This document shows, piece after piece, positions 26,801 to 53,558 of a stretch of 53,563 nt of DNA. The DNA is from an uncultured bacterium. GTDB lineage: Bacteria; Acidobacteriota; Aminicenantia; Aminicenantales; Aminicenantaceae. Within the stretch, counting starts at the first letter, position 1, and every line of letters begins with the position of its first letter. The stretch is taken from NCBI GenBank assembly GCA_965603705.1, contig CBFDDY010000001.1, positions 1 to 53,563 on the forward strand, written 5' to 3'. The notes beneath the pieces are model-generated. The model ran no database searches. It was not told where the DNA came from and was given only the letters and a program-made list of their open reading frames with translations. Position numbers and translations under genes: made by a program.

Positions 26801-26828
26801 TTATATCTCCCAAAAAATTGCTCAATCA
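26801..26828 (-). repeat. Conserved 28-nt inter-paralogue spacer, copy 3
   Basis: ttatatctcccaaaaaattgctcaatca. The following 22 nt (the 3' end of paralogue 4, ttattcatacctcaatgaatcg) are also identical to those after copy 2. Confidence 0.8.
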
Positions 26829-29189: not shown

Positions 29190-29245
29190 TCATTAACTCC
29201 AGTATTTAATAATATCTTATATATTTCCCATATATGCGGATTTTA

Positions 29246-31561: not shown

Positions 31562-31589
31562 TTTTATTTCCTCTTAAATTACTTAATCA

Positions 31590-33929: not shown

Positions 33930-33933
33930 TAGG

Positions 33934-34605: not shown

Positions 34606-34617
34606 TTTTTTCCCCTT

Positions 34618-36927: not shown

Positions 36928-36947
36928 TTTTCAGCCCCGATCAGTTC

Positions 36948-37160
36948 TTACTTTTTTACCCGGTACAGAACTGCCCCTAGATACCCTGATTCATTGATTT
37001 CTGCTATATACAATCCTGGCTGGTAATGAGAGCGAATTGATAATTTTGATTCTGATAATTCATTTAAGAGACTGGCTGGCGAGTGGCTACCATTTGCATT
37101 ATAGAGGAAAAAACTTTCTGTCTCCTCCTCCAGTTTGGTCAGTATATCTTTAAGACTCAT
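36948..37160 (-). CDS. Hypothetical 70-aa soluble protein embedded in the efflux operon
   Basis: ORF with GGGAG 6 nt upstream of its ATG, lying between ATPase copy 2 and paralogue 7. No TM segment and no recognisable motif (MSLKDILTKLEEETESFFLYNANGSHSPASLLNEL...). Confidence 0.45.
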   Translation of the reverse strand: MSLKDILTKLEEETESFFLYNANGSHSPASLLNELSESKLSIRSHYQPGLYIAEINESGYLGAVLYRVKK

Positions 37161-37215
37161 TTCTGGCTCCCTATTGATTATTTACTTCTCTGCTAATTTT
37201 CCTGTTTGTCTACTC

Positions 37216-37905: not shown

Positions 37906-37936
37906 ATTGATATCTCCTTGATAAAATCATTTTATT

Positions 37937-39196
37937 TTAATTATCTTTAAGAATTAACTCCTCAGCCTTACCAAAATTATCATAGGAAGAGGTAATTACT
38001 TTATCACCCGGCTCTAACCCCTCTAATACTTCGAAAAATAAAGGATTCTGCCTGCCCAGTTTTATGTCTCTTTTTATTGCTCTCTGTTCCTTTTCATTCA
38101 GAATAAAGACCCAATATCCTCCACTTTTTTGATAAAAACCACCCTTAGGTAATAAGAGTGCCTCTTCCAGATCTCCCAGTTCAAACCGAATATGCAGGGT
38201 TTGACCTCGACGAATTCTCTGAGGCTGTTGATCTATAAATATAAAATCTACCTTAAACTCATTTTCTTCAACCTCTGGATAGACCATGGTAGATTTCAGT
38301 TTGAAATCCTTCCCTGAATAAGGAAATGTCCCGGTTCTGCCAACCTCGACCCGGGTTATATAATGCTGATCTATTGGAGATCTTACTTTAAAACTGTTAA
38401 TAACATCCACTTGTCCCAACCGTATACCCCGAGGCATAGACTCACCGATTTGAAACTCAATCAAACTGAGTAGTCCTTCAATAGGGGCTTTAATGGTTAA
38501 TTCATCCTGCTTTTGCATAATAATTTTTAAATTACCCCTCATTCTGTTTAAGGATGATTCCAACTGTTGAATTTGCTGCTGACGAAATGATATGTCTGTT
38601 TCTTTTGAACGCCTGGTTAATTCATATTTTTCTTTTAGATAATTACAGTTATTTTCAGCTGTCTCAAAATCCTGTTTGGAGACTAGTTTTTCTTTAAATA
38701 AATAGGTGTATCTTTCATATTTATTCTGAGCTTCTTTTAACTCAAACCCAATCTGAGCCAGCTGCTGATCCAGCATTATGCCATAACGTTCAAGGTCCAA
38801 CTTGGTATTTCTCAGATTGTTGATCTGTCGATATAGTTCTGCTTCCCGGTACATAATATCCAGTAATAGGTTGGTATTGGAAAGCTTTAGAATTCTATCA
38901 CCTTTTTTTACATATAAACCAGGCTGAGCAAAAATCTTCTCAATCCGTCCTCCTTCGGTGGCTACTAAATACCTGGTATCTATAGGGATAACTTCACCTA
39001 CTATCGGGATGAATTCTTGAAAAGGTCCTTTAGTAACGGTAGAAACAGTCAATCGTTCTTTATTAACTCGCAACTGGTTGCTTTTTATAGTAAGTAGGGT
39101 ATATATTACAAAAATTATAAAAAGTCCGCTTAAAGACAAAATAACTATCCGTTTAGGCGTCCATCTTTTTTTCTTTATTTTTCGATCCATACTCAT
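37937..39196 (-). CDS. HlyD/MFP-family periplasmic adaptor (membrane fusion protein)
   Basis: 419 aa. N-terminal anchor (MSMDRKIKKKRWTPKRIVILSLSGLFIIFVIYTLL), lipoyl-like halves flanking a long coiled-coil (LDLERYGIMLDQQLAQIGFELKEAQNKYERY...), and a beta-barrel C-terminal part. First gene after cassette A. Confidence 0.85.
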   Translation of the reverse strand: MSMDRKIKKKRWTPKRIVILSLSGLFIIFVIYTLLTIKSNQLRVNKERLTVSTVTKGPFQEFIPIVGEVIPIDTRYLVATEGGRIEKIFAQPGLYVKKGDRILKLSNTNLLLDIMYREAELYRQINNLRNTKLDLERYGIMLDQQLAQIGFELKEAQNKYERYTYLFKEKLVSKQDFETAENNCNYLKEKYELTRRSKETDISFRQQQIQQLESSLNRMRGNLKIIMQKQDELTIKAPIEGLLSLIEFQIGESMPRGIRLGQVDVINSFKVRSPIDQHYITRVEVGRTGTFPYSGKDFKLKSTMVYPEVEENEFKVDFIFIDQQPQRIRRGQTLHIRFELGDLEEALLLPKGGFYQKSGGYWVFILNEKEQRAIKRDIKLGRQNPLFFEVLEGLEPGDKVITSSYDNFGKAEELILKDN

Positions 39197-39228
39197 ATTT
39201 TACTCCTGCACTTATTCACTCATTTATA

Positions 39229-39355
39229 TTCAAGAATCATGCCAAAAATTATAAAGTAAATAGAATCAACCTTTTAGAGGTTAATCCTTGAAAAATTCCC
39301 AAAAAATCCTCTTGATTATGTTTGGAAATGAACACAATCTGTCCGTTAATGAACA
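39229..39355 (-). promoter_or_regulatory. Regulatory cassette copy A: sigma-54-like -24/-12, IHF-like site and two UAS dyads, upstream of the adaptor-led operon
   Basis: Minus strand: TTGGCATGATTCTTGAA (rc of 39229-39245; fits TGGCAC-N5-TTGC apart from two mismatches, C to T and C to A). WATCAANNNNTTR match AATCAACCTTTTA at 39264-39276. Dyads TGTTCATTTCCAAACA (rc of 39319-39334) and TGTTCATTAACGGACA (rc of 39340-39355), 21 bp start-to-start. 7 mismatches in 127 positions versus copy D, by my count. Confidence 0.6.
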
Positions 39356-39387
39356 GCTTTTTAAAGGTGGAAAGGGAATCCCCAGAT

Positions 39388-41745
39388 TTATTCATAGTGG
39401 AGGGACTCAGCGGGGTTTGCCCGGGCGGCTTTGATGGCCTGGTAGCTCACGGTCAGCAGCGCGATGAGGAGGGTCGCCAACCCAGACAAAATGAATATTT
39501 CCGGGCCGATATGCGTTCTATAGGCATAACGTTCGAGGATTCTCCGCATCATGAAATAGGCAACAGGCCAGGCTATAACATTGGACAGCAACACCCATTT
39601 AGTGAAGTCTCTGGACAGCATGAATACCACGTCTTTTATGGAAGCACCCACAACCTTGCGGACGCCGATCTCTTTGGTGCGCCGTTCCGCCATAAAGGCA
39701 GTAAGGCCAAAAAGTCCGAGACTGGATATAAATAAGGCGAGCAGAGTGAAATACCCGGCAATTTTTCTCGCCTGCCTCTCTGTGGTGTAGATGTAGTTGG
39801 TGAGAACATCATTGAAGAATATGGGATTTGCCGGAGAGTCGGATTCGAATTTTGAGAAAGCTTTGTTGATGTGTTGCAAAGTCCCGGAAATGTTTTCCGG
39901 TCGTATCCTGACAAATGCAAGGGATCCGGAATCGGGCCTGAGCATGAAGACAAACGGCCTGACCTCATGATAAAGAGGCTGGAAGTGGAAGTTCTTCACA
40001 ACTCCGATGATCTTTCCTTCGTTCCGGAAAACTGACAGCCGCTTCCCGACAGGCAATTCCATTCCCATCATCTTCACCGCCTCCTCGTTCACGATGTAGG
40101 CCTCTTTTTGATCCGTGGAATATTCTCTGGAAAATGCCCGTCCTTCCATAATCTCCATATCAAGAGTGGCAAAATAATCGTATCCCACATAATCCCAGTG
40201 CATGCTCACAGTCTCATCCGGCGGCTTGCCGTCCCAGTCCACAGCGCCGACCGTAGACCCAATGTTCCATGGCCCCTGAAGACTTCTTGTCACGCCTTGG
40301 ACCTGATGATTATTCAGCAGGTCGTTCCTAAATGGCTCGAATCGCTCCTGCATTTGTTGACTCATCCGGACCATAACCAAGTTTTCTCTGTCGAATCCCA
40401 GGTCAGTGCTCATCACAAATCCGAGTTGTCTGGAGAGGACGACCGTGCTGATGATCATGATGATCGTGAGCGAAAACTGAACAACAACGAGGGTTTTGCG
40501 CAGGGAGCTCTTGATCCTGCTTCGGATCAGACCTTTAAGGATGTTCCCGGGTTGAAAGGCCGAAAGATACAGAGCCGGATAAGCTCCGGCGAGGGCTCCT
40601 GTAAACAGGGCTATTCCCAAAAAACCAAGGGCGACGACCGGTTTGAGCAGGAGACGCAGCGAAAACTGTTTTCCCAAGAGTTCATTAAACGTCGGGAGAA
40701 AGGCCGCTATAAGAGCGACCGCGATTAGCAAGGCAATGAGGGAAATCATCAGGGATTCACCGATAAACTGGCGGACAAGGTCGATCTTCCTCGCGCCGAT
40801 CACCTTGCGAACTCCGACTTCCTTTGCCCGGGTGGTCGCCTTGGCCGTGCTCAAGTTCATGAAGTTAATGCATGCGATAAGCAGAACAAAAAGGGCGATA
40901 CCAGAAAAAATCAAAAGGGATTGGATCAGACCGCCTCCTGCAGGGGAATACAAGTGTTTTTTTGTCAGGGGGTGTAGGTGAAATGTGACCTTCACATTTT
41001 CCCACTGTGCGTGTTTCTCTACGATCGTGGTGATCTTTTGCTCCACTTCAAGACGGTCAACATCCTTATGCAGCAGGACGTAGGTATTGAGCGGATTTCC
41101 TCCCCAGTGCTCAGGCTCCTTAAAATTCGGGGCAAATTTAAGGGCATAGGGCATGACGCAGTCAATCTGGAGAGAGGACTGTGTTGGGACATCCACCATG
41201 ACACCTGTGACCTGGATAACCACTTCGTTGTTCAAGGTGAGTGTTTTCCCAATGGGATCATCATTCCCAAAATATTTTTTGGCCATCTTTTCTGTCAGGA
41301 CAACGGAATAGTGCTCCGTCAGAGCCGTATCTGGATTGCCTTTTACAAAGGGAAAGGAAAAAACATCAAAGAAGCCCGGGTCGGCCAGGCCGACAGCATC
41401 GCTGGTGAATCGTTTCTCCCCATGACTTAACAACAACCCGGTTGCGTTTTCATACCGGATGGCCTCGATAACTTCTGGGCACTCCTCCTTCAGAATCTTG
41501 GCGAGGGGGTAGTAAGAGCCCATGTTTATCCGACTGCCTCCACTTGTGTTCAACATTTCGCAGTATACCTGGGAGATGTCATTCTTATTCACATGAAACC
41601 GGTCATACCCGAATTCATGCTGGACCCACAGGAAGATAAGAAGGCAAACAGCCATCCCGATAGAAAATCCCACGATGTTAATAACCGAATGAAGCGTGTG
41701 TTTTCGGATATTTCTAAGGGTCATTATGAAATAATTTTTAAACAT
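39388..41745 (-). CDS. Duplicated FtsX/MacB-type ABC permease, paralogue 8 (visibly higher G+C)
   Basis: 785 aa. MFKNYFIMTLRNIRKHT. Motifs AKEVGVRKVIG and TKEIGVRKVVG. Ends NPAESLHYE*. GGGAGGG ribosome-binding site upstream. Confidence 0.9.
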   Translation of the reverse strand: MFKNYFIMTLRNIRKHTLHSVINIVGFSIGMAVCLLIFLWVQHEFGYDRFHVNKNDISQVYCEMLNTSGGSRINMGSYYPLAKILKEECPEVIEAIRYENATGLLLSHGEKRFTSDAVGLADPGFFDVFSFPFVKGNPDTALTEHYSVVLTEKMAKKYFGNDDPIGKTLTLNNEVVIQVTGVMVDVPTQSSLQIDCVMPYALKFAPNFKEPEHWGGNPLNTYVLLHKDVDRLEVEQKITTIVEKHAQWENVKVTFHLHPLTKKHLYSPAGGGLIQSLLIFSGIALFVLLIACINFMNLSTAKATTRAKEVGVRKVIGARKIDLVRQFIGESLMISLIALLIAVALIAAFLPTFNELLGKQFSLRLLLKPVVALGFLGIALFTGALAGAYPALYLSAFQPGNILKGLIRSRIKSSLRKTLVVVQFSLTIIMIISTVVLSRQLGFVMSTDLGFDRENLVMVRMSQQMQERFEPFRNDLLNNHQVQGVTRSLQGPWNIGSTVGAVDWDGKPPDETVSMHWDYVGYDYFATLDMEIMEGRAFSREYSTDQKEAYIVNEEAVKMMGMELPVGKRLSVFRNEGKIIGVVKNFHFQPLYHEVRPFVFMLRPDSGSLAFVRIRPENISGTLQHINKAFSKFESDSPANPIFFNDVLTNYIYTTERQARKIAGYFTLLALFISSLGLFGLTAFMAERRTKEIGVRKVVGASIKDVVFMLSRDFTKWVLLSNVIAWPVAYFMMRRILERYAYRTHIGPEIFILSGLATLLIALLTVSYQAIKAARANPAESLHYE

Positions 41746-41851
41746 CGTTACCCTCCCGTAAAGCGATGCATATATAAATCCCGCTTAAAAACAGAATAGC
41801 AATCCGTTTAGGCGTCCATATTTTTTTCTTACTTTTTCGATCCATGCTCAT
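41738..41851 (-). pseudogene. Remnant of the adaptor (HlyD-type) gene 5' end, forming a 37-codon upstream ORF that overlaps the paralogue-8 start
   Basis: My translation, MSMDRKSKKKIWTPKRIAILFLSGIYICIALREGNDV*, against the adaptor N-terminus MSMDRKIKKKRWTPKRIVILSLSGLFIIFVI. Nucleotide similarity runs for ~90 nt and then stops. Its stop (TAA 41740-41738) overlaps the permease start in ATGTTTAA. Confidence 0.7.
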
Positions 41852-41883
41852 ATTTTACTTCTGCACTTTTTCATTTATTTATA

Positions 41884-42010
41884 CTCAAGAATCATGCCAA
41901 TATCTGTAAGGTAAATAGAATCAACCTTTTAGAGGTTAATCCTTGAAATATTTCCAAAAAATCCCCTTGATTATGTTTGGAGCCGAACACAATCTGTCCG
42001 TTAATGAACA
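41884..42010 (-). promoter_or_regulatory. Regulatory cassette copy B, upstream of permease paralogue 8
   Basis: Same architecture and spacing as copy A. -24/-12 is the rc of 41884-41900 (TTGGCATGATTCTTGAG). IHF-like site at 41919-41931. Dyads are the rc of 41974-41989 (TGTTCGGCTCCAAACA) and of 41995-42010 (TGTTCATTAACGGACA). Confidence 0.6.
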
Positions 42011-42041
42011 GCTTTTTAAAATTAAAGCCCATAGTGTTCCT

Positions 42042-44459
42042 TTATTCATACCGTAGACTGTTAATGGGATTGGCCAATGCGGCTTTGAGAACCTGGTAGC
42101 TGATAGTTATCATGGTAATAGCCAGTGCAATCGCTAAGGCGAAAATAAAAAACATAATATTCAGAGAGGTGCGGAAGGCAAAACCTGACAGCCACTCCCT
42201 CATCACAAAATACGCAACAGGCCACGCAATCACATTGGCAGCAATCACCCATTTGAAAAACTGCTTGGAGATAAGAATAAATATTGAGGGAGTGGAAGCC
42301 CCATGAACTTTGCGGATCCCGATCTCTTTTCTCCGCTGTTCTACAGTAAAAGAGGCTATGCCGAAGAGGCCCAAACAAGCGATAAAAAGGGCCAGAACAG
42401 TGGCAATATTGATGAGTATGCCGACCTTTCGGTCATTTTCATAAAGCTTCTCGATGGATTCATCCAGAAACTTATATTCAAAAGGATGTCCCGGGGCCAC
42501 CTTCCGCCAGATTTCTTTAAGTGTGGAAAGAATCTCCGTCAGATTCCCCGGCCGGACCTTGACTAGAAGGATGTCATAATCATCCGGTGTATAGATCATT
42601 CCAAGGGGAGCTATAGCATTGTGGAGGGTGTCAAAGTGGAAATCCTTAACAATCCCAATGATACGAAAATTACGGATCCTCTTCCCGATGGGATCCTTCA
42701 TACCTATGGCTTTGATGGTTGTCTCATTTACTATAATCGGAAGTTCTCCCTCACTTTTTTCCTCTGCTTTGAAAAACCTGCCCTCAACAAGATCTAGACC
42801 AAAAACCTTCAGATAATCATGATCAACGGATAAAAGATCCATCAAATAAGTAGCATCTGTATCCCGGCCTTCCCATTCATTCAGAGTCATAGACCTATGA
42901 TTGCCGGCGGGAGCATCGGAAGCCGCTGTAACTGCGATCGCTGCTGTGTTTCTCGAAATCTCTTTTTTTAGAACTTGAAATTTTTCATCCAGGTCTCCTT
43001 TCAGATCAAGACAGAGAATATGGTCTTTTTCGATTCCTAAATTCATGTTCCGGATATAATGCATCTGGCGGTTGATTATTACAGTCCCAATAATCAGGCA
43101 AATGGTCAGCACAAACTGAAAAACAACCAGTATTTTTCGGAACAAGCCTCCCCCGGTTCCGGATAAAGATTTCTTTTTCAGCGCTTTGATGGGCTGGAAA
43201 GAAGAGAGAAAAAGAGCAGGGTAACTGCCAGCGATCACTCCGGTAAGAGCGGCAATTCCCAGAAGGCTTAAGATAAGAGTCAGTTGAGAAGTAATCTGGA
43301 AGGTCATCTCTTTTCCGGTCAAAGAGTTGAAGGCAGGCAGCAACAACTGAGCAAGGCTTACGGCAAAAATGAGCGCCATAAAAGCCAGGAGGATGGATTC
43401 ACCAAAGAACTGGGAAATAAGATTTCCCCGCTTGGCACCAACAACTTTCCTCAATCCAACCTCAAGGGCACGGTTTTCGGATCGGGCTGTAGTCAGGTTC
43501 ATAAAATTGATGCAGGCAATCAGGAGAATAAAAAAGGCTATTAGAGAGAAAATATATACATATCTGATGTCCCCGTCCGTACCGGAAGCACGGATCCCTG
43601 TTGAGTACAGATGAACTTTTGTAAATGGCTGCAGGGAAAGTGTCATTATGGTTCCTTCATCATATTTTTTTAAAAATCCTTCAATTTGTGTATTGAATTT
43701 TAGATAATCTATTTGTTTACTCAAGAGGATATATGTATGAATTCCATAACTACCCCAATCGTCCATTTTCCAGCCATATTTTTCCAAGGAGATAAAAGGA
43801 ACCACAAAATCACATTGTATCTGGGAATTATGCGGGATGTTTTTCAGAACACCCGTGACCTGAAATTCATGTTTTCCGTCCACCTGAATGACTTGCCCGA
43901 TAGGATCCTTCCCTTTGAAGTATTTTTGAACCATCTCTTCAGTCAGAACAATGGAAGCAGGAGCCGAAAGTATTGTATCCACATTGCCTTGAAGGAGGGG
44001 AAATGTAAATATTTTGAAAAGCTCAGGATCAGCGAAGGCAAAGCCATCCTCGTAAAAGCTATTATCTCCGAACCGAACAATTCTTCCGCGGGAACGTCTA
44101 AAACGAACCGCCTCGAGGACCTGTGGATAATCTTTTTTAAAGGCAGGGCCAAAACCTGTTGGAAAGACAGGATAAGCGAGAATCCGACCGTCTGACATTT
44201 GTTCGTGCTCCACAGCTCGAAAAAGCTGATCGGCATTTTCGTGAAAGCAGTCGAAACTCAATTCATTCCAAACCCAGAGTAGAATCAGAATGCAGGAGGC
44301 CATTCCGACCGTAAGCCCAGCCAGGTTGATAAAGGAATAAGCCTTATGCCTTTTGATTTTACGGAAGGCGATTTTAATATAGCTCCATACTAGGGAAGGC
44401 TTGACATAGAAGGGATGCCAAAACGGACGACTTCTTTTTTTATTTTCAAGATCAAACAT
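42042..44459 (-). CDS. Duplicated FtsX/MacB-type ABC permease, paralogue 9 (higher G+C, N-terminal extension)
   Basis: 805 aa. Motifs ALEVGLRKVVG and RKEIGIRKVHG. Ends NPINSLRYE*. The family N-terminus appears as ...SLVWSYIKIAFRKIKRHK without a Met and is preceded by a basic 22-24-aa extension (MFDLENKKRSRPFWHPFYVKP). GAGGTG ribosome-binding site before the ATG at 44459. Confidence 0.85.
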   Translation of the reverse strand: MFDLENKKRSRPFWHPFYVKPSLVWSYIKIAFRKIKRHKAYSFINLAGLTVGMASCILILLWVWNELSFDCFHENADQLFRAVEHEQMSDGRILAYPVFPTGFGPAFKKDYPQVLEAVRFRRSRGRIVRFGDNSFYEDGFAFADPELFKIFTFPLLQGNVDTILSAPASIVLTEEMVQKYFKGKDPIGQVIQVDGKHEFQVTGVLKNIPHNSQIQCDFVVPFISLEKYGWKMDDWGSYGIHTYILLSKQIDYLKFNTQIEGFLKKYDEGTIMTLSLQPFTKVHLYSTGIRASGTDGDIRYVYIFSLIAFFILLIACINFMNLTTARSENRALEVGLRKVVGAKRGNLISQFFGESILLAFMALIFAVSLAQLLLPAFNSLTGKEMTFQITSQLTLILSLLGIAALTGVIAGSYPALFLSSFQPIKALKKKSLSGTGGGLFRKILVVFQFVLTICLIIGTVIINRQMHYIRNMNLGIEKDHILCLDLKGDLDEKFQVLKKEISRNTAAIAVTAASDAPAGNHRSMTLNEWEGRDTDATYLMDLLSVDHDYLKVFGLDLVEGRFFKAEEKSEGELPIIVNETTIKAIGMKDPIGKRIRNFRIIGIVKDFHFDTLHNAIAPLGMIYTPDDYDILLVKVRPGNLTEILSTLKEIWRKVAPGHPFEYKFLDESIEKLYENDRKVGILINIATVLALFIACLGLFGIASFTVEQRRKEIGIRKVHGASTPSIFILISKQFFKWVIAANVIAWPVAYFVMREWLSGFAFRTSLNIMFFIFALAIALAITMITISYQVLKAALANPINSLRYE

Positions 44460-44495
44460 TTTATCACCTCAACCTTTAAAAATCCTAAATCTTTA

Positions 44496-44573
44496 CTACA
44501 ATGAGGGCAAAGGCCTCCAGAGTGTTAAAAGATCCTTATATACCCTCATCCAGGGACGCCTCTCCATGCTCAT
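44496..44573 (-). other. 25-codon upstream ORF in the leader of paralogue 9, starting with the adaptor gene's first three codons
   Basis: ATGAGCATGGA (rc of 44563-44573) matches the adaptor start ATGAGTATGGA. After that the sequence is unrelated (MSMERRPWMRVYKDLLTLWRPLPSL*). Whether it is translated is unknown. Confidence 0.3.
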
Positions 44574-44605
44574 ATTTTAGTCCTGTACTTTTTCCCTCAT
44601 TTACA

Positions 44606-44734
44606 ATCAAGAATCATGCCAAAAATTATAACGTGAATAGAATCAAGCCTTTAGAGGTTAATCGTTAATTAAATTTACAAAAAAATCCTCTTGATCATGT
44701 TTGGAAACGAACACAATCTGTCCGTATATGAACA
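44606..44734 (-). promoter_or_regulatory. Regulatory cassette copy C, upstream of permease paralogue 9
   Basis: -24/-12 is the rc of 44606-44622 (TTGGCATGATTCTTGAT). IHF-like AATCAAGCCTTTA at 44641-44653. Dyads are the rc of 44698-44713 (TGTTCGTTTCCAAACA) and of 44719-44734 (TGTTCATATACGGACA), 21 bp apart. Confidence 0.6.
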
Positions 44735-44746
44735 GCTTTTTAAAAA

Positions 44747-47095
44747 TTATTCGTATCTCAAACTTTTAATCGGGTTTGCAATTGCCGCTTTAATGGATTG
44801 GTAGCTCACTGTCAAAAAAGAAATCAAGATTGCAGCAAATGCAGCAATTAAAAATGTAACAATCCCAATATTTATTTTGTAAGCAAAGGTTTGCAGCCAT
44901 TTATTCATTGCAAAATAGGAGATAGGCCAGGCAATAACAATTGCAATGAATACCCATTTTGTAAATTGTTTTGTCAACATACTTACAATTTCCGGAACAG
45001 ATGCCCCCATAACTTTTCTAACACCAATTTCTTTGGTTCTCTGAATTGTGGAAAAAGAAGCCAAACCAAATAAACCAAGACAGGCGATAAATAAGGCAAG
45101 TAAGGCAAAAAATGTAAAAATACTCTCCACTTTTTTTTCAAGTTTGTAGGAAGAATTAAAAACATCATCAAAGAATTTATATTCGAATGGATAATTGGGA
45201 GAAAATTTTGCTATTGTTTCTCGAATAAATGTTACTGTTTTTGGGACATCTTTTTCTTTTGCTTTAATAGATAAATTTCGATTTGCTCTTTCCGGATTTA
45301 AATCCAAACAGATCGGCTGAATGGATTCATGAAGCGGCAACATGTGAAAATCTTTGACAATCCCGACAATTTTCCCGCTTCTTCCTCCTAAAAAATGTTT
45401 AAATTCTTTACCAACCGGATTTTCCAAGCCGATTTCCTTAACAGCAATTTCATTTAAGAGGAAAGCTCCGGTAGCATCAGAGGAAAAGTCTTTGGAAAAA
45501 TTTCTACCTTCCACGATTTTAATCTCATAAAGATCAACATAATTATAATCTATAAAGTTTATAAAAATTTCTTGTTTTTTATCTTCTGGTTTTCCAGGCC
45601 AATCTGCAAGAGTTGCAGCCCCGGATTCATTTGGTAAATCAAAACAGGAAGAAACGGCTAAAATATTTGGATTTTTTTCTAATTCATTTTTAATCGATTC
45701 AATATTGCTTCGGAGTTTGTTGTCGCGAATATCGACTACGATAATATGGTCTTTGACAAAACCAACATCTTTATTGCGAATGAAATACATCTGATCTTTG
45801 ATAGTCAATGTGGCAATAATTAGAATGATGGAAATCATAAATTGACCAACAACAAGGCTGTTACGCAGTTTTGATCTTTTTGTACCTGCAATTTGATTTC
45901 GAAAAGTTGTCATTGGATTAAAGGTTGAAATGGCGAAAGCAGGATATCCTCCGGCAATGACACTTACAAAAATTAGCAACACAATTAGCCAGGATAAAAA
46001 TTGCATGTTTTCGAATAGGTTAAAATTCAAATTCCGTTCTGCAAAAACATTGAATGAAGGCAATAATAGCCAAACCAAAATGGTTGCCAGAAAAAAAGCT
46101 AAAATCGAAAAAAGGATCGATTCTCCTAAAAACTGTTTAATCAATTGAGGCCTGGTTGAGCCAATCACTTTGCGAATTCCGATCTCTTTCATCCGTTGAG
46201 CAGAACGTGCAGTAGCCAAATTTATGTAGTTTATACAAGCGATGATCAGGATTAAAATGGCAACGGAAGTTAGTAAATAGATTAGTTTGACTTGATCTGA
46301 TTGCAAATGAATTTTAGTAAGAGGTTGAAATTCAAATTGTATTTGTTTGGCGGTTTCTTCATCAAAATGTTTTGTTATTAGACTTGGAATTTTACTTTCT
46401 AAATCTTTCAGATTTGATTCTTTATTTAATAAAATATAGGTGCGATAAGAACTATATCTCCAGGATTTATGATCATGAAATGAATCTATTATTTGAGTCG
46501 TTTTAAATGGCGCAAGAAAATCGACAGTAAGAATAGAATTGTCCGGCAAATCTTTCAAAATTCCTGTTATTTTAAAATCATGTTCACTTTTATAGCTGAT
46601 ATTTTTCCCGATTGGATTTTCATTTCCGAAATATTTTTTCGCCATCGATTCTGAAATCACTACAGAATTAGGATCATCCAAGACTGTTTGAGGATCTCCT
46701 TCTAAGAGTTCAAATGAAAAAATGTCAAATGTCTCAGGATCGGTAAAACAGAAACCGTTTTCAAAAAAATTCTTATCTTTATAAGAAATGAAGATTTTCC
46801 CAGTTCGATAAAACCTGGTTGCTGATTCAACCTCTGGAAATTCTGCTTTAAGGGTGGGAGCAAGTGGAGGTTGAGTAAGATTGGAGAGTCGATCAGAACC
46901 TTGTTGGCCTTGTAAAATCCGATAAATTCGATCAGCATTTTTATGATATTTATCAAAACTAATTTCAAACTGAACTAAGAGTAAAATTAAAATCACAGCG
47001 GTGAGCCCTAAAGCTAATCCCGCAATATTGATAAAGGAATATCCTTTGTGTCTTTGAATATTCCTGAATACGATTTTAAGATAATTTTTGAACAT
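44747..47095 (-). CDS. Duplicated FtsX/MacB-type ABC permease, paralogue 10
   Basis: 782 aa. MFKNYLKIVFRNIQRHK. Motifs MKEIGIRKVIG and TKEIGVRKVMG. Ends NPIKSLRYE*. Lies 83 nt downstream of the TolC-type gene with no intact cassette in between. Confidence 0.9.
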   Translation of the reverse strand: MFKNYLKIVFRNIQRHKGYSFINIAGLALGLTAVILILLLVQFEISFDKYHKNADRIYRILQGQQGSDRLSNLTQPPLAPTLKAEFPEVESATRFYRTGKIFISYKDKNFFENGFCFTDPETFDIFSFELLEGDPQTVLDDPNSVVISESMAKKYFGNENPIGKNISYKSEHDFKITGILKDLPDNSILTVDFLAPFKTTQIIDSFHDHKSWRYSSYRTYILLNKESNLKDLESKIPSLITKHFDEETAKQIQFEFQPLTKIHLQSDQVKLIYLLTSVAILILIIACINYINLATARSAQRMKEIGIRKVIGSTRPQLIKQFLGESILFSILAFFLATILVWLLLPSFNVFAERNLNFNLFENMQFLSWLIVLLIFVSVIAGGYPAFAISTFNPMTTFRNQIAGTKRSKLRNSLVVGQFMISIILIIATLTIKDQMYFIRNKDVGFVKDHIIVVDIRDNKLRSNIESIKNELEKNPNILAVSSCFDLPNESGAATLADWPGKPEDKKQEIFINFIDYNYVDLYEIKIVEGRNFSKDFSSDATGAFLLNEIAVKEIGLENPVGKEFKHFLGGRSGKIVGIVKDFHMLPLHESIQPICLDLNPERANRNLSIKAKEKDVPKTVTFIRETIAKFSPNYPFEYKFFDDVFNSSYKLEKKVESIFTFFALLALFIACLGLFGLASFSTIQRTKEIGVRKVMGASVPEIVSMLTKQFTKWVFIAIVIAWPISYFAMNKWLQTFAYKINIGIVTFLIAAFAAILISFLTVSYQSIKAAIANPIKSLRYE

Positions 47096-47103
47096 GATTG
47101 AAA

Positions 47104-47154
47104 TCCATATGAATGATTGGATTAAAAATTATAGCCCATATTAACCTCAGTATT
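47104..47154 (-). repeat. Decayed partial fifth copy of the regulatory cassette (distal flank only)
   Basis: 47121-47154 (attaaaaattatagcccatattaacctcagtatt) aligns without gaps to 50771-50804 in copy D (tttaataattataggccatattgactttggtatt), 27 of 34 by my count. tccatatgaatga (47104-47116) looks like a degraded distal dyad. The -24/-12, the IHF-like site and the proximal dyad are missing. Confidence 0.45.
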
Positions 47155-47178
47155 CCGGAATAACTATTGTCACTGGTT

Positions 47179-48738
47179 TTAAAGGGGGGATATCTGAAAA
47201 AATTTTATGTCTTTACTCTCAAGAGTTGTTCCCAGCGTTTTTTCCAGCCCTGCTAAAGAGAGATTATAATCAATGACTGCTCTAATTTCAGCGCTTTTTG
47301 CATTTGCAAGGTCTCTTTGATACTGAAGCACAGTATAGTTTGTTGAAAGTCCTACTATCAGTTTTTTCTCTTCCGCCGCAAGTGTTTTTTCAGCAAGTTC
47401 TCTTGCTGTCTTATAGGCATGGACTCGCTTATAATTAGACATTACATTGCGAACGGCATTTCTTATTTCCAGAAATGCCTGTTGTTCATCATTCTGTAAT
47501 TTAAATTTCGCCTGTTTAAAATTAACTTTTGCCTGGGCAAACCGAGCACGAGAAAAAATCGTCGCCACAGGAATGGAAAGGGTCAGCCCTACAGACCAGT
47601 TTTTATAAGCAAAAGAAAAAGTGTCTTTTAAAGATTTGGTAGCATCCCCAGGAGTTTTTCCCACTACGACATCTGTAAGGGGATTATTATCTTGATAAAG
47701 TATCTGGGTTCCTGATACACCAGGGCTCCAGTATGAAACATCAAAACTTAAGCCAGGAAGAAGCTGATTCTTGGCATAACTTAATTCAACATCTTTACTT
47801 TTTATGTCAATACGGCTTGCCTTAAGGTCAGGTCTGTTCTGCATCCCAATCAGCAGGGCCTCATCAAGACTTATATCATTTTCTTTATAAGTCGGCTCAT
47901 CAATAGGGATTATATTTTTCATCTTTACATCTTCCTCTGCAACAAGATTAATAATAGTTTTCAAGGTGTCTTCATTGTTTTTAACCAGATAATCAGCTTC
48001 TATAATATCAGCTTCTCTGGCAGCTACTTCAGATTCAGCACTCAATACCTCTATGGGAGCAAGTACACCTACTTCCACCTCTTTTTTGTTTTTTGCCAGT
48101 AAGTCAAGGGCAAGTTTAAGAGACTGTTGCTTTGCTTTAAGGTTTTCTATGCTGAACACAAGTTCCCAGTAAGCTTCTTCAACATTATAAATAGTCTGTA
48201 TAAGTGATTCTTTAAAATTTGCCTCTGATATTTGAGTGTTGTTATTAGCTACAATGATTTCCCTGCGAGTCACTTTAAATCCAAAATCCTTTAAAAGAGG
48301 TTGAGACAAGCTAAATGAAAGCGAGCTACCGTAGCGGGGATTTATTGTCTGAAACTTCCTGCTGGAATCACTTTTGTAAGAATAAAGGGATACGGAAAGA
48401 CTCCCTCCTGTAGGAAAGAGCTGCTCTAATTGGACGCCGTAATCATCAACCATAGAGGTTACTTGTACTGCTGCATCAATCCAAGAAAAAGAAGGATTAT
48501 TGGTCTCCTGTGTTCCATAATTAAAAGATAGTGAAGGCAGAAATATTTCTTTCTCCACAGAAGCAGATATGTCTGCGAGCTCTGGATTTAAAACTTCAAC
48601 AGCTATGTTTAGATTGTTTTTCAAAGCACCTAATATGCATTCCTCAAGAGTAATAGGAATTTTACTCTCCTGACCGCTAAATGTGACTGCTGATAATAAT
48701 ATAATTAAAATACTTATTCCCGTTATCTTTTTATACAT
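47179..48738 (-). CDS. TolC/OEP-family outer-membrane efflux protein
   Basis: 519 aa. Signal peptide MYKKITGISILIILLSAVTFSG. Two-fold internal repeat of coiled-coil and beta-strand segments typical of outer-membrane factors. Confidence 0.85.
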   Translation of the reverse strand: MYKKITGISILIILLSAVTFSGQESKIPITLEECILGALKNNLNIAVEVLNPELADISASVEKEIFLPSLSFNYGTQETNNPSFSWIDAAVQVTSMVDDYGVQLEQLFPTGGSLSVSLYSYKSDSSRKFQTINPRYGSSLSFSLSQPLLKDFGFKVTRREIIVANNNTQISEANFKESLIQTIYNVEEAYWELVFSIENLKAKQQSLKLALDLLAKNKKEVEVGVLAPIEVLSAESEVAAREADIIEADYLVKNNEDTLKTIINLVAEEDVKMKNIIPIDEPTYKENDISLDEALLIGMQNRPDLKASRIDIKSKDVELSYAKNQLLPGLSFDVSYWSPGVSGTQILYQDNNPLTDVVVGKTPGDATKSLKDTFSFAYKNWSVGLTLSIPVATIFSRARFAQAKVNFKQAKFKLQNDEQQAFLEIRNAVRNVMSNYKRVHAYKTARELAEKTLAAEEKKLIVGLSTNYTVLQYQRDLANAKSAEIRAVIDYNLSLAGLEKTLGTTLESKDIKFFQISPL

Positions 48739-48833
48739 TTTTATTCTCCTGATAAAGTTTTTCTTTCTGGCAGATTAATTGTCATTTATCTATTAACTAT
48801 TAAGCAATAAATAGGCGTCAGAGTTCTAACTAC

Positions 48834-50594
48834 TTATTTTCTTATAAACATCGAACCCAAGAGGCGATCCACCTTTTCATTCTCTAGTTTGAAATCTCTT
48901 ATCTCTCCGTCATCATAGCGGTGGAATATCAAAAAACCCTTATCGTATCCGAAGATGTCTTTTTTCAGCGGTACAAATGAAACATCTAAATCCCCCAGGA
49001 ATTCACCCGTAAAAAGACGGCCGGCCATTGTCGAAAACCGATATGTTTTCTGAAGCTCCACCGAGAAATACCTTCCCTCGTACTCGGAAAAGTCAAATTC
49101 CACAGGAGGCTTGATCTTTTTGGCCTCATCCTGCAGTTTGTCTTTTGAAAAGAGGGCAAGCTTATATCCGGTTCCTGAAGGTCCTTCTGTGAAGCGGTAC
49201 TGTAGCCCTCTTATCCCATCGACATCGAAAACGCCCTGCCCTCGATGCTGCAGTTCCCGGGGCATGATGGCTTCGCCGATATTCCCGAACTGCTCCGACA
49301 AAACGCGGCGGGAAAGACTGCCGTTCTCATGGTAGATACAGACAAGCGAGCCGCTTCCCAATTGATAAAAGCCTTCCCAGCCTGCCGATTCTTTCGGATC
49401 CCACGGGACGGCGGTGTCCGGTTCCTTCCCTTCGGCTCCCCGGGGCGGGCCGAAGTCCATCCTCAGTTCTTCGACCAGGAAGTCACCCACCTTCTCGAAA
49501 ATATCGAAGAGTGATATCTGGTCTGACTGGATATTGCTCAAGGCAATCAGGCAGGCGTCCTTCTCGATAAACCTGTCCATGAGAGCCCGAAATCCATATG
49601 AAGAGCCTCCGGCTCGAACGATCGTTAAATTGTCTTTGCCGTCATTATAATGGGCGGACATGACGATTCCGGCCAGAGAAATATCGGAAGAATGCGGTTC
49701 AAGAAGCATTTTTTTGTTTTTTTCAGATAGGATGTTGTCGCCAACGAAATCCAATATTTTCTGAAAACTATACAGGTCTTTGGCGGTGCTCAGGATGTTA
49801 CCGGCGGCAAGGCGCGTCGATTCCTCCTCGATAGTGGCGAGTGCGTACCCTTCCAGGCCCTTCTGATAGCCGGTGGCCATATTCTTATGGATGGTCCTGT
49901 TGTTGTGCACATGAGTGTCTTTCATGCCCAGAGGACCAAAAATATTTTCCTCCAGCAGTTCTGCATAGGACTTCCCCGACACGGCTTCCAGGATAACGCC
50001 CAGTACATAATATCCGGGACTGGAATAAGTCATCCGTTCACCAGGCTCGTGCTGAAGATCGATGTCCCAGAAATGCTTCATAAACTCCAGGGGCGTGTGG
50101 AAATACTTGTCATGCACATCGAAGTACCGGGGGATGCCGATGAAATGGTGGGGGATGCCCGATTTGTGTTCCAGCAGATGACGGACTGTAATTATAGAGG
50201 CGTTTTTCTTGGGGAAATATGGGAGATAGGAGTCGATTGTTGCGTCAAGATTAATAAGACCCTTCTCAGCCATCTGCAGCACTAGGACTGCCGTGAATTG
50301 TTTTGTTATGGACCCGATGAGATATTTTGTGTCGGGTTTGTCGGGAATGTCGAAACTCCTGTTGGCGACACCGTAACCTTTGTGGACAAGAATCTTCTCT
50401 CCTACGCCAATCAAAATTGTTCCGTTGAATGGAACAGGGAGGGAGTCGAGAAATTGATCGACCTTTTCTTTCAGAGACACAGTAAGGCCTGTGTCCCCCC
50501 CCTGCTTTAGAGGATCTGCATATAAACGCAAACCACAATTGATAAACATCAGTCCGACCGAAAAAACAACTGCATACAGATGATATTTTTTCAT
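48834..50594 (-). CDS. Secreted beta-lactamase-fold serine hydrolase (class C / PBP4*-like) with a ~200-aa C-terminal extension
   Basis: SxxK nucleophile motif in IGSITKQFTA, followed by YSSPGY. Signal peptide MKKYHLYAVVFSVGLMFINCG. I start it at the ATG at 50594; the track's TTG at 50597 is an alternative. First gene after cassette D. Confidence 0.8.
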   Translation of the reverse strand: MKKYHLYAVVFSVGLMFINCGLRLYADPLKQGGDTGLTVSLKEKVDQFLDSLPVPFNGTILIGVGEKILVHKGYGVANRSFDIPDKPDTKYLIGSITKQFTAVLVLQMAEKGLINLDATIDSYLPYFPKKNASIITVRHLLEHKSGIPHHFIGIPRYFDVHDKYFHTPLEFMKHFWDIDLQHEPGERMTYSSPGYYVLGVILEAVSGKSYAELLEENIFGPLGMKDTHVHNNRTIHKNMATGYQKGLEGYALATIEEESTRLAAGNILSTAKDLYSFQKILDFVGDNILSEKNKKMLLEPHSSDISLAGIVMSAHYNDGKDNLTIVRAGGSSYGFRALMDRFIEKDACLIALSNIQSDQISLFDIFEKVGDFLVEELRMDFGPPRGAEGKEPDTAVPWDPKESAGWEGFYQLGSGSLVCIYHENGSLSRRVLSEQFGNIGEAIMPRELQHRGQGVFDVDGIRGLQYRFTEGPSGTGYKLALFSKDKLQDEAKKIKPPVEFDFSEYEGRYFSVELQKTYRFSTMAGRLFTGEFLGDLDVSFVPLKKDIFGYDKGFLIFHRYDDGEIRDFKLENEKVDRLLGSMFIRK

Positions 50595-50640
50595 CAATTT
50601 TTTCTCTTTTTTTACTCCTACACCTTTTCACGCATTTACA

Positions 50641-50767
50641 TTCAAGAATCATGCCAAAAATTATAACGCAAATAGAATCAACCTGTTAGATGTTAATCCT
50701 TGAAAAATTTCCAAAAAATCCTCTTGATTATGTTTGGAAATGAACACAATCTGTCCGTATATGAACA
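50641..50767 (-). promoter_or_regulatory. Regulatory cassette copy D, in the divergent intergenic region between the hydrolase operon and the sigma-54 activator gene
   Basis: -24/-12 is the rc of 50641-50657 (TTGGCATGATTCTTGAA). IHF-like AATCAACCTGTTA at 50676-50688. Dyads are the rc of 50731-50746 (TGTTCATTTCCAAACA) and of 50752-50767 (TGTTCATATACGGACA). Confidence 0.6.
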
Positions 50768-50790: not shown

Positions 50791-50820
50791 TTGACTTTGG
50801 TATTGATCTTGCTTTATCAT
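50791..50820 (+). promoter_or_regulatory. Candidate sigma-70-type promoter for the activator/kinase operon
   Basis: TTGACT (50791-50796), an 18-nt spacer, then TATCAT (50815-50820). Caveat: the predicted start site would fall within or next to the GAGGGA ribosome-binding site (50825-50830), leaving a very short leader. Confidence 0.3.
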
Positions 50821-50835: not shown

Positions 50836-52218
50836 ATGGAAAATCAGATTGAGGCCAGAGTGTTAATCGTAGATGATGATCTGGGTGTATTACAGGCAGC
50901 GCAGTTCTATTTAAAGCAATATGTAAAATTAATAGATATCAGGGACAATCCCGAAGAAATGATCCGGGCCTTTCAACCGGGACAGTACGACGTTATCCTT
51001 CTGGATATGAACTTCACACTGGACCTCACCAGCGGGGAAGAAGGATTATACTACCTTAGAGAATTAAAAAGAATCGATCCTGCAATTGAGGTTATTTTGA
51101 TTACTGCTTATGGGGATGTGGAATTAGCAGTAAAAGCCATCAAAGAGGGGGCCACTGATTTTATTTTAAAACCCTGGCAGAATGAAAAATTATTAGCCAC
51201 GGTTACCACCACATTTAAATTATATCAGAGCAGGAACAGGATTAAGATTCTTCAATTCCAAAAAGAACAGCTTATTGATAATATTAATAAGCATTTTTAT
51301 AACCTCATTGGGACTTCCAAACCAATGCAGGATGTTTTTTCTATAATCAAAAAGGTTTCTAAAACCGATGCCAACATATTGATCACCGGGGAGAATGGTA
51401 CCGGAAAAGAATTGGTTTCAAGAGCTATCCATCGGGATTCCTTGCGCTGTCATGAACCCTTTATCAGCGTAGATATGGGAGCAATCAGCGAAACGCTGTT
51501 TGAGAGTGAATTATTCGGACATAAAAAGGGTTCTTTTACCGATGCTAAAAAAGATAGGGCAGGACATTTTGAAATCGCTTCCAGTGGGACTCTCTTTTTA
51601 GATGAAATAGGAAATCTCCCTTATCCCTTACAGGCAAAAATTCTGCGGATTATGGAAAGCCGGGAAGTAAAAAGATTAGGAAGCAATCAAACCATCCCCA
51701 TTAATATTCGCCTAATTTGCGCCACCAACCTGGATATCCACAAAATGGTGAAGGAACGTAAATTTCGAGAAGACCTCCTTTATAGGATAAATACCATTGA
51801 AATAAAGCTACCACCCCTCAGGGATCGGGACCAGGATATCATCCTACTGGCCAATACATTTCTGGAACAATACTGTAAAAAATATAAAAAATCCCTCAAA
51901 ACCCTCACAACAAAAACCCAGGAAATGTTAAAAGTATACCATTGGCCTGGCAACATAAGAGAGTTAAAACATTCTACTGAAAGAGCCGTGATAATGAGTG
52001 ATAAGGACCGCTTAACTCCCGATGATTTCTTTTTTTCCTCTCAAAAAGACAAGATGGAAAAAGTCCCTGACAACTTAACCTTAGACCATCTTGAGCAGGA
52101 ATTCATAATCAAAACCCTTAAGAAACATAATAAAAATATTTCAAAGGCTGCCAAAGAACTGGGTTTGTCCCGTTCAGCTTTATACCGCAGAATGGATAAA
52201 TACAATATCACTCTATGA
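50836..52218 (+). CDS. NtrC-family sigma-54-dependent response regulator (REC + AAA+ + Fis-type HTH)
   Basis: 460 aa. Receiver (VLIVDDD...DVILLDMNF...ILKPW). AAA+ Walker A GENGTGKE, Walker B LFLDEIG, and GSFTDA at the position of the GAFTGA sigma-54-contact loop. C-terminal HTH NISKAAKELGLSRSALYRRM. Confidence 0.9.
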   Translation: MENQIEARVLIVDDDLGVLQAAQFYLKQYVKLIDIRDNPEEMIRAFQPGQYDVILLDMNFTLDLTSGEEGLYYLRELKRIDPAIEVILITAYGDVELAVKAIKEGATDFILKPWQNEKLLATVTTTFKLYQSRNRIKILQFQKEQLIDNINKHFYNLIGTSKPMQDVFSIIKKVSKTDANILITGENGTGKELVSRAIHRDSLRCHEPFISVDMGAISETLFESELFGHKKGSFTDAKKDRAGHFEIASSGTLFLDEIGNLPYPLQAKILRIMESREVKRLGSNQTIPINIRLICATNLDIHKMVKERKFREDLLYRINTIEIKLPPLRDRDQDIILLANTFLEQYCKKYKKSLKTLTTKTQEMLKVYHWPGNIRELKHSTERAVIMSDKDRLTPDDFFFSSQKDKMEKVPDNLTLDHLEQEFIIKTLKKHNKNISKAAKELGLSRSALYRRMDKYNITL

Positions 52219-53558
52219 AAAGATATTTTAAAAAATTTAAGATCCGGGTTTTTATCCAAGTATTATTAATCTGTATCAATATTTTCCTGGGTGTTTTCTT
52301 TTTTGTTTTATATAAAAATTTTCTGATGGTTGGAATTTTTCTGATTATATTATTGGCACTTCTCTATTACCATGTAAAATTTATAGATCAAACCAATCGC
52401 AATTTTAAACGATTCCTGGAAGCTATTAATTATTCAGACTTTTCTCAATCCTTTACCGATAAGAACCTGGGAAAATCCTTTTCTGAATTAAGCCAGGCCT
52501 TTACTCAAGTTGTAGAAAAATTTCAGAAGGCCCGGGCGGAAAAAGAAAAAAGCTTCCGCTACATGAATACTATTGTTCAGTACATTAATAATGGTCTTAT
52601 CAGCTTTGATCAGGAAGGAAATGTGGATTTTATCAACCGGGCCGCAAAGAAGATACTTAACATCCGTTTTTTAAAAAACATTCAATCCTTTAAAACCAAG
52701 AATCCCAACCTATATCAACTGATGAAAAAAATCCGGCATGGAGAAAAATTAGTAAAAAAAATCTCAATTAATAATGATACAAAACAGATGGCCTTTTCAG
52801 GTTTTGAATTTAAAGTGGGAGATAAGAATTTAAAATTGTTATCTATCCAGGATATCCACAATCTTTTGGAAGATAAGGAATTAGAAGCCTGGCAAAAATT
52901 AATTCGGGTACTAACCCACGAAATCATGAATTCCCTTACCCCTATTTCATCCCTCAGCAGTACTACCTTTGATTTAATCCAAGAGATTGAGGTACAGGAT
53001 GACCCGTTAAAAGAAAAATTACTGGATATAAAAGATGCTTTAAATACTATTCATAAAAGAAGTGAAGGCTTAACTGATTTTGTAAAAGCTTACCGCAGCT
53101 TGACTCTAATCCCCAAACCTGAATTTCAGATTATTTCGGTATCCAGTCTTTTTTCCAGAGTACACAAGATACTAAAACCCAAACTCCAGGAGCAGGGAAT
53201 CTCGTTTGAGAGAATTATAGATCCAGAGTCACTTGAGATCAGCGCCGATCCCTCCTTAATGGAACAGGTTCTGATCAACCTGCTGCTCAATTCCATCTAC
53301 GCCCTCAAAGAGATCCGGAAACCCAAAATTGAATTGAAATGTTTTTTAGGAGACAGCGGTAAAGTGGTCATCCAGGTAATTGACAATGGCAGTGGTATTT
53401 TAGAAAAAAACCTGGGGAAGATCTTTGTCCCCTTTTACTCCACCAAGAAATCATCGGGGATCGGCTTAAGCTTCTGCAAACAGATCATGAAGTTACACAA
53501 CGGCCAGATCAAGGTTGCCTCCACCCAAAACTCCATCACCTTTTCATTGTATTTTTAA
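52215..53558 (+). CDS. Histidine kinase with a TM hairpin (no periplasmic sensor domain), a cytoplasmic PAS-like domain, HisKA and HATPase_c
   Basis: 447 aa. The ATGA start overlaps the regulator stop. Two TM helices (residues ~10-32 and ~37-54) are joined by only ~4 residues (YKNF). H-box LTHEIMNSLTPISSL, N-box LINLLLNSIYAL, G-boxes DNGSGI / GIGLSF. Confidence 0.85.
   Translation: MKRYFKKFKIRVFIQVLLICINIFLGVFFFVLYKNFLMVGIFLIILLALLYYHVKFIDQTNRNFKRFLEAINYSDFSQSFTDKNLGKSFSELSQAFTQVVEKFQKARAEKEKSFRYMNTIVQYINNGLISFDQEGNVDFINRAAKKILNIRFLKNIQSFKTKNPNLYQLMKKIRHGEKLVKKISINNDTKQMAFSGFEFKVGDKNLKLLSIQDIHNLLEDKELEAWQKLIRVLTHEIMNSLTPISSLSSTTFDLIQEIEVQDDPLKEKLLDIKDALNTIHKRSEGLTDFVKAYRSLTLIPKPEFQIISVSSLFSRVHKILKPKLQEQGISFERIIDPESLEISADPSLMEQVLINLLLNSIYALKEIRKPKIELKCFLGDSGKVVIQVIDNGSGILEKNLGKIFVPFYSTKKSSGIGLSFCKQIMKLHNGQIKVASTQNSITFSLYF

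Follow-up and report, generated by a model that had tools for sequence, protein, structure and literature searches.

Tandem dyads upstream of −24/−12 elements as a candidate enhancer of a sigma-54 response regulator next to a MacB/FtsX-type efflux array

In enteric bacteria, the NtrC enhancer at glnAp2 consists of two dyad-symmetric sites that lie on the same face of the helix ∼100–140 bp upstream of a −24/−12 promoter. They bind dimers of a response regulator of REC-AAA+-Fis-HTH architecture, whose oligomerisation is triggered by phosphorylation; the consensus of an NtrC site is TGCACC-N5-GGTGCA. The locus analysed here resembles this layout, as tandem dyads on one helix face are found upstream of −24/−12 elements with their centres ∼108 and ∼129 bp ahead of the inferred start. 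It differs in the sequence of the sites, in their spacing (21 bp, or two turns, as opposed to ∼32 bp, or three turns, at glnAp2) and in the targets, which are efflux genes and not those of nitrogen assimilation. The outer core, TGT-N10-ACA within 16 bp and upstream of sigma-54 promoters, is that of the NifA UAS. However, NifA has a GAF domain and activates nif genes, whereas the activator encoded here has a receiver domain and no GAF, and the sites of its family additionally require C5/G12, R6/Y11 and an obligate tandem at 20–22 bp.

TGT and ACA half-sites with fixed spacers also define motif groups of the Desulfovibrio vulgaris EBPs, among which are proteins with GAFTDA or GSFTGA loops, but the spacers are 9, 11 or 12 bp there and 10 bp here (PMC4641369). 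That paper links no EBP to FtsX/ABC efflux genes (‘FtsX’, ‘ABC’ and ‘efflux’ have 0 occurrences). In a 2025 survey, sigma-54 promoters are predicted upstream of COG0577/FtsX-like ABC permeases in Bacteroidia, Opitutia and Gammaproteobacteria, a link for which it claims the first evidence (PMC12316311). The prediction, in the passages found, is made at the level of promoters and without an activator or enhancer site, whereas a candidate activator family and its UAS are supplied here. Literature searches for this UAS, for sigma-54 together with FtsX/MacB/ADOP and for NtrC4 sites returned no description of the site. Judged from the DNA, the paired 16-bp dyads are very probably the enhancer of the adjacent sigma-54 activator, through which four promoter cassettes of an efflux array would be switched on.

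Tandem dyads and the cassettes that carry them

Within the window (the whole 53.6-kb stretch of DNA analysed), the pattern TGTTCNNNNNNRRACA (TGTTC-N6-RRACA) has eight matches, all on the minus strand, where 0.52 are expected by chance, and no shuffle of the window gave eight. The matches form four pairs with a start-to-start distance of 21 bp in 4/4, and the composite TGT-N10-ACA-N5-TGT-N10-ACA is matched four times against 0.00 expected. Each pair sits in one of four copies (A–D) of a ∼175-bp promoter cassette (173 alignment columns), all oriented opposite to the activator gene. On the minus strand the order is distal dyad, the 5-bp linker GATTG, proximal dyad, a gap of 74 bp (76 bp in cassette C, the 44.7-kb copy), the −24/−12 element TGGCATGATTCTTGA, ∼45 bp with a Shine-Dalgarno sequence, and ATG (Table 1). 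The element (TGGCAT-N5-TTGA) is present in four exact copies, one per cassette; its −24 part and its spacing are canonical, and its −12 part reads TTGA (GA) instead of the canonical TTGC (GC). Copies A–C begin 12–35 nt past a stop codon. The dyad sequences, eight start coordinates and 21-bp spacing given in the initial annotation were reproduced exactly by our pattern scan, and its placement of the tandem dyads ∼75–115 bp upstream of a −24/−12 element fits the measured gap of 74–76 bp.

Table 1. Positions of the cassette elements, of the activator–kinase pair and of the presumed target genes in the window
Feature	Position	Strand	Remark
Cassette D distal dyad TGTTCATATACGGACA	50752..50767	−	pattern match
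Cassette D proximal dyad TGTTCATTTCCAAACA	50731..50746	−	pattern match
Cassette D sigma-54 −24/−12 element TGGCATGATTCTTGA	50642..50656	−	ahead of beta-lactamase-fold gene (48834-50597), outer-membrane efflux protein (OEP) gene (47179-48738) and duplicated FtsX/MacB_PCD permease (44747-47095)
Cassette C tandem dyads TGTTCATATACGGACA / TGTTCGTTTCCAAACA	44698..44734	−	starts 44698/44719
Cassette C −24/−12 element	44607..44621	−	upstream of one permease (42042-44459)
Cassette B tandem dyads TGTTCATTAACGGACA / TGTTCGGCTCCAAACA	41974..42010	−	starts 41974/41995
Cassette B −24/−12 element	41885..41899	−	upstream of 37-codon MFP remnant and one permease (39388-41745)
Cassette A tandem dyads TGTTCATTAACGGACA / TGTTCATTTCCAAACA	39319..39355	−	starts 39319/39340
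Cassette A −24/−12 element	39230..39244	−	upstream of membrane-fusion protein (MFP) gene (37937-39196), then two ABC ATPases and seven more permeases, down to 19608
Candidate divergent sigma-54 promoter TGGTATTGATCTTGC	50798..50812	+	24 nt ahead of activator ATG
Sigma-54-dependent response regulator, presumed dyad binder	50836..52218	+	REC, AAA+ with GSFTDA loop, HTH_8
Cognate histidine kinase	52215..53558	+	HATPase_c; histidine kinase homologue in 84/88 related loci collected
Presumed regulon	19608..50597	−	beta-lactamase-fold protein, OEP, 10 duplicated FtsX/MacB_PCD permeases, MFP, 2 ABC ATPases

It is very improbable that the inverted repeats act instead as RNA, forming hairpins or weak terminators where the upstream permease genes end. 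A consensus scan weakly flags CTGTTCAT(T/A)(A/T)ACGGACAG together with ATTGTGTT as terminator-like in copies A–C, and the 51-nt RNA folds into two hairpins of −11.7 to −11.9 kcal/mol with a z of about −3.3, but the stems are short, AT-rich and without a real U-tract, and the 69-nt context of copy C gives a z of only −1.5. Furthermore, copy D and most of the orthologous sites described below lie in divergent intergenic regions where no upstream gene would transcribe that strand, and the conservation is that of a protein-contact logo, TGTnCR, whose free position 4/13 would break pairing. A search of the whole window against the Rfam RNA families gave no match.

The interval between the UAS and the promoter has features of its own. 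The 13-bp IHF consensus WATCAANNNNTTR is found there in all four cassettes (39264, 41919, 44641 and 50676, plus strand), which hold 4/6 of its matches in the window, and substitutions among the copies are confined to its NNNN positions. As it was not found in the orthologous promoters of five related loci (L083 and L085–L088), we treat it as a side note. It lies within an imperfect inverted repeat, AGGATTAACC-N7-GGTTGATTCT, which is terminator-like in copies A and B and was rejected as a structured element because the arm substitutions in C and D are not compensatory.

Substitution placement and related loci

According to the initial annotation none of the 20 half-site columns varies among the cassettes and five of the 12 N6 columns do, and our alignment of the four copies (173 columns) confirms both counts: the half-sites (0/20) and the linker (0/5) have no variable column, and the N6 spacers have 5/12 and the remainder of the cassette 40/136. 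The corresponding Fisher tests (half-sites against the rest, p = 0.002; against the spacers, p = 0.004) and the probability of 0/20 variable columns at the cassette background rate (∼0.001) are somewhat generous, as the limits of the half-sites were set only once the sequences had been seen, and the spacers show no excess variability over the cassette background (p = 0.5). Since the copies are in addition young paralogues, their invariance alone does not prove selection. The linker GATTG and several flanking runs, such as GGATTTTTT, are equally invariant in the window copies, so that recent duplication or gene conversion might have produced the pattern as a by-product, with half-sites defined post hoc that stayed free of substitutions by chance among the few that occurred.

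Further copies speak to this point. Metagenomes were scanned with the anchor GATTCTATT-N13-TTGGCATGATTCTTGA, which derives from the promoter portion of the cassette and contains no dyad base, and eight further cassette copies were found, four of them on one 96.7-kb contig that mirrors the A–D layout of the window. The initial annotation had proposed that substitution placement be tested on more copies; among the 11 distinct copies now available, 1/20 half-site columns and 5/12 spacer columns vary, as opposed to 53/120 of the other non-anchor columns (Fisher p = 4e-4 for half-sites against these). The sole half-site change, AAACA to AGACA in L094, falls at position 13, which is degenerate across the sites of the activator family, and among the family-informative positions just one varies, position 6 (A/G), where both bases fit R. 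The result thus repeats in independently fetched copies.

To place the cassettes in a wider context we turned to homologues of the activator, of which a protein search returned at least 8000. Among the matches listed, the nearest are 99%, 85% and ∼70% identical, several of the ∼70% group being from Candidatus Aminicenantes MAGs. We collected 80 genome loci from the listed matches (51–58% identity), distributed over Bacteroidota, Acidobacteriota, Latescibacterota, Zixibacteria, Ignavibacteria and others, and eight loci for closer homologues, including those at 68–71% (L083, L085–L088). The recurrent synteny is one of MFP, ABC ATPase and FtsX permease genes divergent from a response regulator–histidine kinase pair, often with an OEP gene nearby, and tblastn over the 88 collected loci, many of which are short, found MFP homologues in 51, ATPase homologues in 47 and permease homologues in 45.

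In the 80 listed loci, the spacing of TGT-N10-ACA pairs peaks at 20 bp (8 cases) and 21 bp (4 cases), and other spacings up to 80 bp mostly have one case or none, with 74 bp occurring three times. The symmetrised logo of 44 distinct tandem sites (one mismatch allowed) reads T-G-T-n-C-R-n-n-n-n-Y-G-n-A-C-A, with C in 87% at position 5, G in 87% at position 12, R/Y in 84% at positions 6/11 and a degenerate position 4/13. Positions 5, 12 and 6/11 played no part in site selection, and their conservation is therefore independent evidence; p-values for the logo are overstated because related promoters are counted as independent. The dyads of the initial annotation are real, and its half-site TGTTC can be refined, as the informative half-site of the family is TGTnCR. 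In a PWM scan with a threshold of 18 bits, 55/89 sources (the 88 collected loci and the window) have a tandem site at 20 or 21 bp and no shuffled locus has one; 18 were found at 22 bp and 0–10 for any one of the other spacings between 16 and 39 bp. Tandem TGTnCR-N4-YGnACA dyads 20–22 bp apart are present in 55–57 of the ∼88 collected loci, and 31 of the 88, some of them short, have no site of at least 20 bits. Most tandem sites adjoin the activator gene, about 100–350 bp upstream of its start, or precede MFP/ABC/FtsX efflux genes (35/75 have an MFP homologue no more than 600 bp downstream, and others are followed by permease, ATPase or OEP genes). The locus of the 85% homologue (L081/L082) has no efflux neighbour and no tandem dyad, either by PWM scan or in one 200-bp upstream stretch; given this different context, it was set aside as uninformative.

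The initial annotation had pointed to homologous cassettes in related genomes as a check on the half-sites. In L083 and L085–L088, whose activators are 68–71% identical, the half-sites and the 21-bp register are retained and the linker and central bases are wholly different (Table 2). The asymmetric distal dyad is flipped in L086–L088 relative to the window, which is expected of, and neutral for, a symmetric dimer. As the linker is not conserved outside this species, the invariance of GATTG in the window merely reflects recency. A by-product of recent copying would hardly leave half-sites and spacing intact in orthologues whose intervening sequence has diverged completely, and the diverged flanks argue against these loci being recent horizontal copies of one cassette; we accordingly give recency as the source of the whole pattern very little credence.

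Table 2. Tandem dyads in six orthologous MFP promoters, written on the activator-gene strand with the efflux-proximal dyad first
Locus	Efflux-proximal dyad	Linker	Second dyad
W (window)	TGTTTGGAAATGAACA	CAATC	TGTCCGTTAATGAACA
L086	TGTTTGATAGTGAACA	GGGAG	TGTTCATTAACGGACA
L088	TGTTTGATAGTGGACA	ATCCG	TGTTCACTATCGGACA
L087	TGTTTGATAGCGGGCA	GTATG	CGTTCATAAACGGACA
L083	TGTCTGATAATGAACA	CCTGG	TGTCCACTTGCGGACA
L085	TGTATGCTACTGGACA	GTTCC	TGTCCGTTTCTGGACA

Two groups of related loci show arrangements of their own. In L085 (16052), L087 (14465) and L088 (14409) a separate tandem dyad lies ahead of the OEP (TolC-like) gene, with a −24/−12-like element downstream only in L088 (TGGAATGAAATTTGCA); the OEP gene of the window, unlike these, sits behind cassette D after the beta-lactamase-fold gene. 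In a Cyclobacteriaceae/Cytophagales subgroup (L018, L024, L031, L033, L034, L053, L061 and L068, at ∼9860–9950) the dyads have a 20-bp spacing and read TGTTCATTTTTGAACA and TGTAC-N6-GnACA, and a TGGCAY-N5-TT(T/C)C element, whose −12 part lacks the G of GC, is found 41–42 bp away and aimed at the activator gene.

Phasing to sigma-54 promoters and the divergent promoter

If the dyads are an enhancer, their distance from the promoter should depend on the face of the helix. Across the collected loci, tandem sites of at least 24 bits have TGGCAY-N5-TTG(C/A/G)-type elements downstream that point away from the site, and in the orthologues the −12 element in the equivalent place is TTGC, TTGA or TTGG. 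Measured from the UAS to the TGGCA of the −24 element, the gaps fall into clusters at 30, 41–42, 48–54, 62–66, 73–78 and 86 bp, and the Rayleigh R is 0.64–0.73 at periods of 10.5–11.5 bp and flat at 8 bp, with p-values that are overstated because kindred promoters are treated as independent. Multimodal gaps in steps of about one turn match what is predicted from the face-of-helix dependence of an enhancer.

This phasing also bears on the identity of the binder. Sequence does not directly identify the protein that binds, and TGT...ACA half-sites are common to many regulators (PMC4641369, and papers on the NifA UAS), so the dyads could in principle be operators of another DNA-binding protein encoded elsewhere, either a repressor or a second activator. 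An operator would overlap the promoter, however, and a phased distance to the −24/−12 element is the signature of an enhancer. Moreover, across several phyla the tandem dyad accompanies this activator gene, as a rule within 300 bp of its start, and at the loci of the closer homologues the neighbourhood contains no other conserved DNA-binding gene. We consider a different binder unlikely and the adjacent activator the probable one.

Cassette D may serve two directions. On the side opposite TGGCATGATTCTTGA, and 30 bp from the dyads, lies the candidate sigma-54 promoter TGGTATTGATCTTGC. An in-register alignment pairs it with the canonical TGGCACCGGTGTTGC ahead of the true start of the 71% orthologue (L083), and it has equivalents in L087 (TGGCATCTTATTTGCA) and L088 (TGGTATCGTATTTGCT). 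Together, these elements suggest that the activator–kinase operon is probably autoregulated from the cassette D enhancer, so that the same dyads would also feed the divergent promoter of the activator, a proposal that is new here. A sigma-70-like TTGACT-18-TATCAT at 50791–50820 (plus strand) overlaps TGGTATTGATCTTGC, and the promoter of the activator in the window could thus also, or instead, be driven by sigma-70. It is possible that such dual promoters provide basal as well as autoregulated expression of the activator.

Activator, efflux array and the proposed wiring

The activator consists of Response_reg (PF00072), Sigma54_activat (PF00158, 5.5e-67), AAA_lid_14 (PF25601) and HTH_8 (PF02954, residues 416–456). 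Ten residues of the recognition helix (E441, L442, G443, L444, R446, L449, Y450, R451, R452 and K455) show no variation across 27 homologues that reach down to 60% identity. In the PDB the activator is matched best by 4l4u (7.9e-91), 1ny5, 3dzd and 1ojl, either along its full length or in the AAA+ and DNA-binding portions. The closest solved structures, Aquifex aeolicus NtrC1/NtrC4 and E. coli ZraR, share the REC-AAA+-Fis-HTH architecture, a match of the proteins at family level only. The activator falls below the NCBIfam curated cut-offs of all the named EBP equivalogs considered (NtrC, AtoC, ZraR, PrsR/PEP-CTERM, GlrR and LuxO), which were rejected as identities, with PEP_resp_reg scoring best (415.9 bits against a cut-off of 502.6); other scores are those of AtoC (366.8/714), ntrC (345.3/558.6) and ZraR (322.7/760). 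NifA was likewise rejected, as the score is 313.7 bits against a cut-off of 528.85, the receiver domain takes the place of GAF and no nif genes are present in the window.

The sigma-54 contact loop (residues 231–236; 51520–51537, plus strand) reads GSFTDA rather than GAFTGA and keeps the F and T; FTDA is invariant in the 27 homologues, and the consensus of the activator family is GAFTDA. GAFTDA and GSFTGA, whose changes GSFTDA combines, are each listed as tolerated loop variants (PMC4641369), and the effect of G-to-D in this loop is regarded as unknown (PMC10714721). This loop, the TTGA of the −12 part and the absence of rpoN from the 53.6-kb window are caveats to the reading as an NtrC-type enhancer.

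Among NCBIfam models, the permeases of the array score highest with the ADOP duplicated-permease family and the MFP with a DarC-like adaptor, in both cases below the equivalog cut-off. The ten paralogous duplicated permeases (769–807 aa; 19608–47095, minus strand) stand against only two ABC ATPases, one MFP and one OEP, an unusually high ratio of permeases to ATPases. Cassette B carries a 37-codon remnant of the 5′ end of the MFP gene (41735–41851, minus strand), MSMDRKSKKKIWTPKRIAILFLSGIYICIALREGNDV followed by a stop, compared with MSMDRKIKKKRWTPKRIVILSLSG... in the MFP itself; the stop codon overlaps the ATG of the permease behind it. Cassette C holds a more decayed MFP remnant (44480–44573, minus strand), MSMERRP.... 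The promoter and the MFP 5′ end were evidently copied along with each added permease, and the remnant may serve as a coupled leader ORF. Elsewhere in the window, a second and unrelated two-component system at 9763–12860 (minus strand) comprises an OmpR-type response regulator and an 805-aa histidine kinase and is adjoined by a 1315-aa VWA-domain protein.

The initial annotation had read the dyads as an NtrC-type enhancer bound by the activator, and its reading is supported at the level of sequence by the domains of the protein, the orthologous promoters, the co-occurrence across phyla and the helical phasing. Each 37-bp unit (dyad, 5 bp, dyad) would be the UAS (enhancer) of a sigma-54 promoter, with two dimers of the response regulator occupying the two dyads via the C-terminal Fis-type HTH; as the dyad centres are 21 bp apart, both dimers would lie on one helix face. 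Phosphorylation by the adjacent kinase would then allow the AAA+ domains to assemble into the active ring, which, by a DNA loop over the ∼74-bp gap, would meet the sigma-54 holoenzyme closed at TGGCAT-N5-TTGA and open the promoter through ATP hydrolysis. Binding, oligomerisation, looping, the inducing signal and autoregulation are inferred. By way of the four UAS-to-Shine-Dalgarno cassettes, a single two-component system would be wired to a MacB/FtsX-type tripartite efflux array of an MFP, 2 ATPases, 10 permease paralogues and an OEP, as well as to the beta-lactamase-fold protein, and cassette D probably also serves the divergent sigma-54 promoter of the activator–kinase operon, giving positive autoregulation.

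Two broader proposals are put forward jointly and tentatively, as possible rather than probable. In the first, the tandem TGTnCR-N4-YGnACA enhancer would mark a previously undescribed regulon, in which one sigma-54 two-component system may control MacB/ADOP-type efflux arrays across Bacteroidota, Acidobacteriota/Aminicenantes-like bacteria, Latescibacterota and Zixibacteria. In the second, the ∼175-bp UAS-to-Shine-Dalgarno unit would be a portable enhancer–promoter module, which seems to have been duplicated whenever a permease paralogue was added, with pieces of the MFP 5′ end left behind, and appears to front the unrelated beta-lactamase-fold gene as well; one copy may be common to two divergent sigma-54 promoters and so provide positive feedback.

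The conceptual surprise is small, because the mechanism is that of textbook NtrC-type activation: an ordinary NtrC-type enhancer, with binding predicted from its sites, in a regulator family so far uncharacterised that belongs to a widespread two-component system. For this family of sigma-54 response regulators, which adjoins MacB/FtsX-type efflux arrays in many environmental phyla, the analysis provides a concrete, testable binding motif and a set of targets. To the promoter prediction of PMC12316311 it adds a candidate activator, an enhancer logo, the tandem rule of 20–22 bp and the helical phasing to the promoter, and with the logo, the tandem rule and the phasing the regulon would be predictable from sequence.
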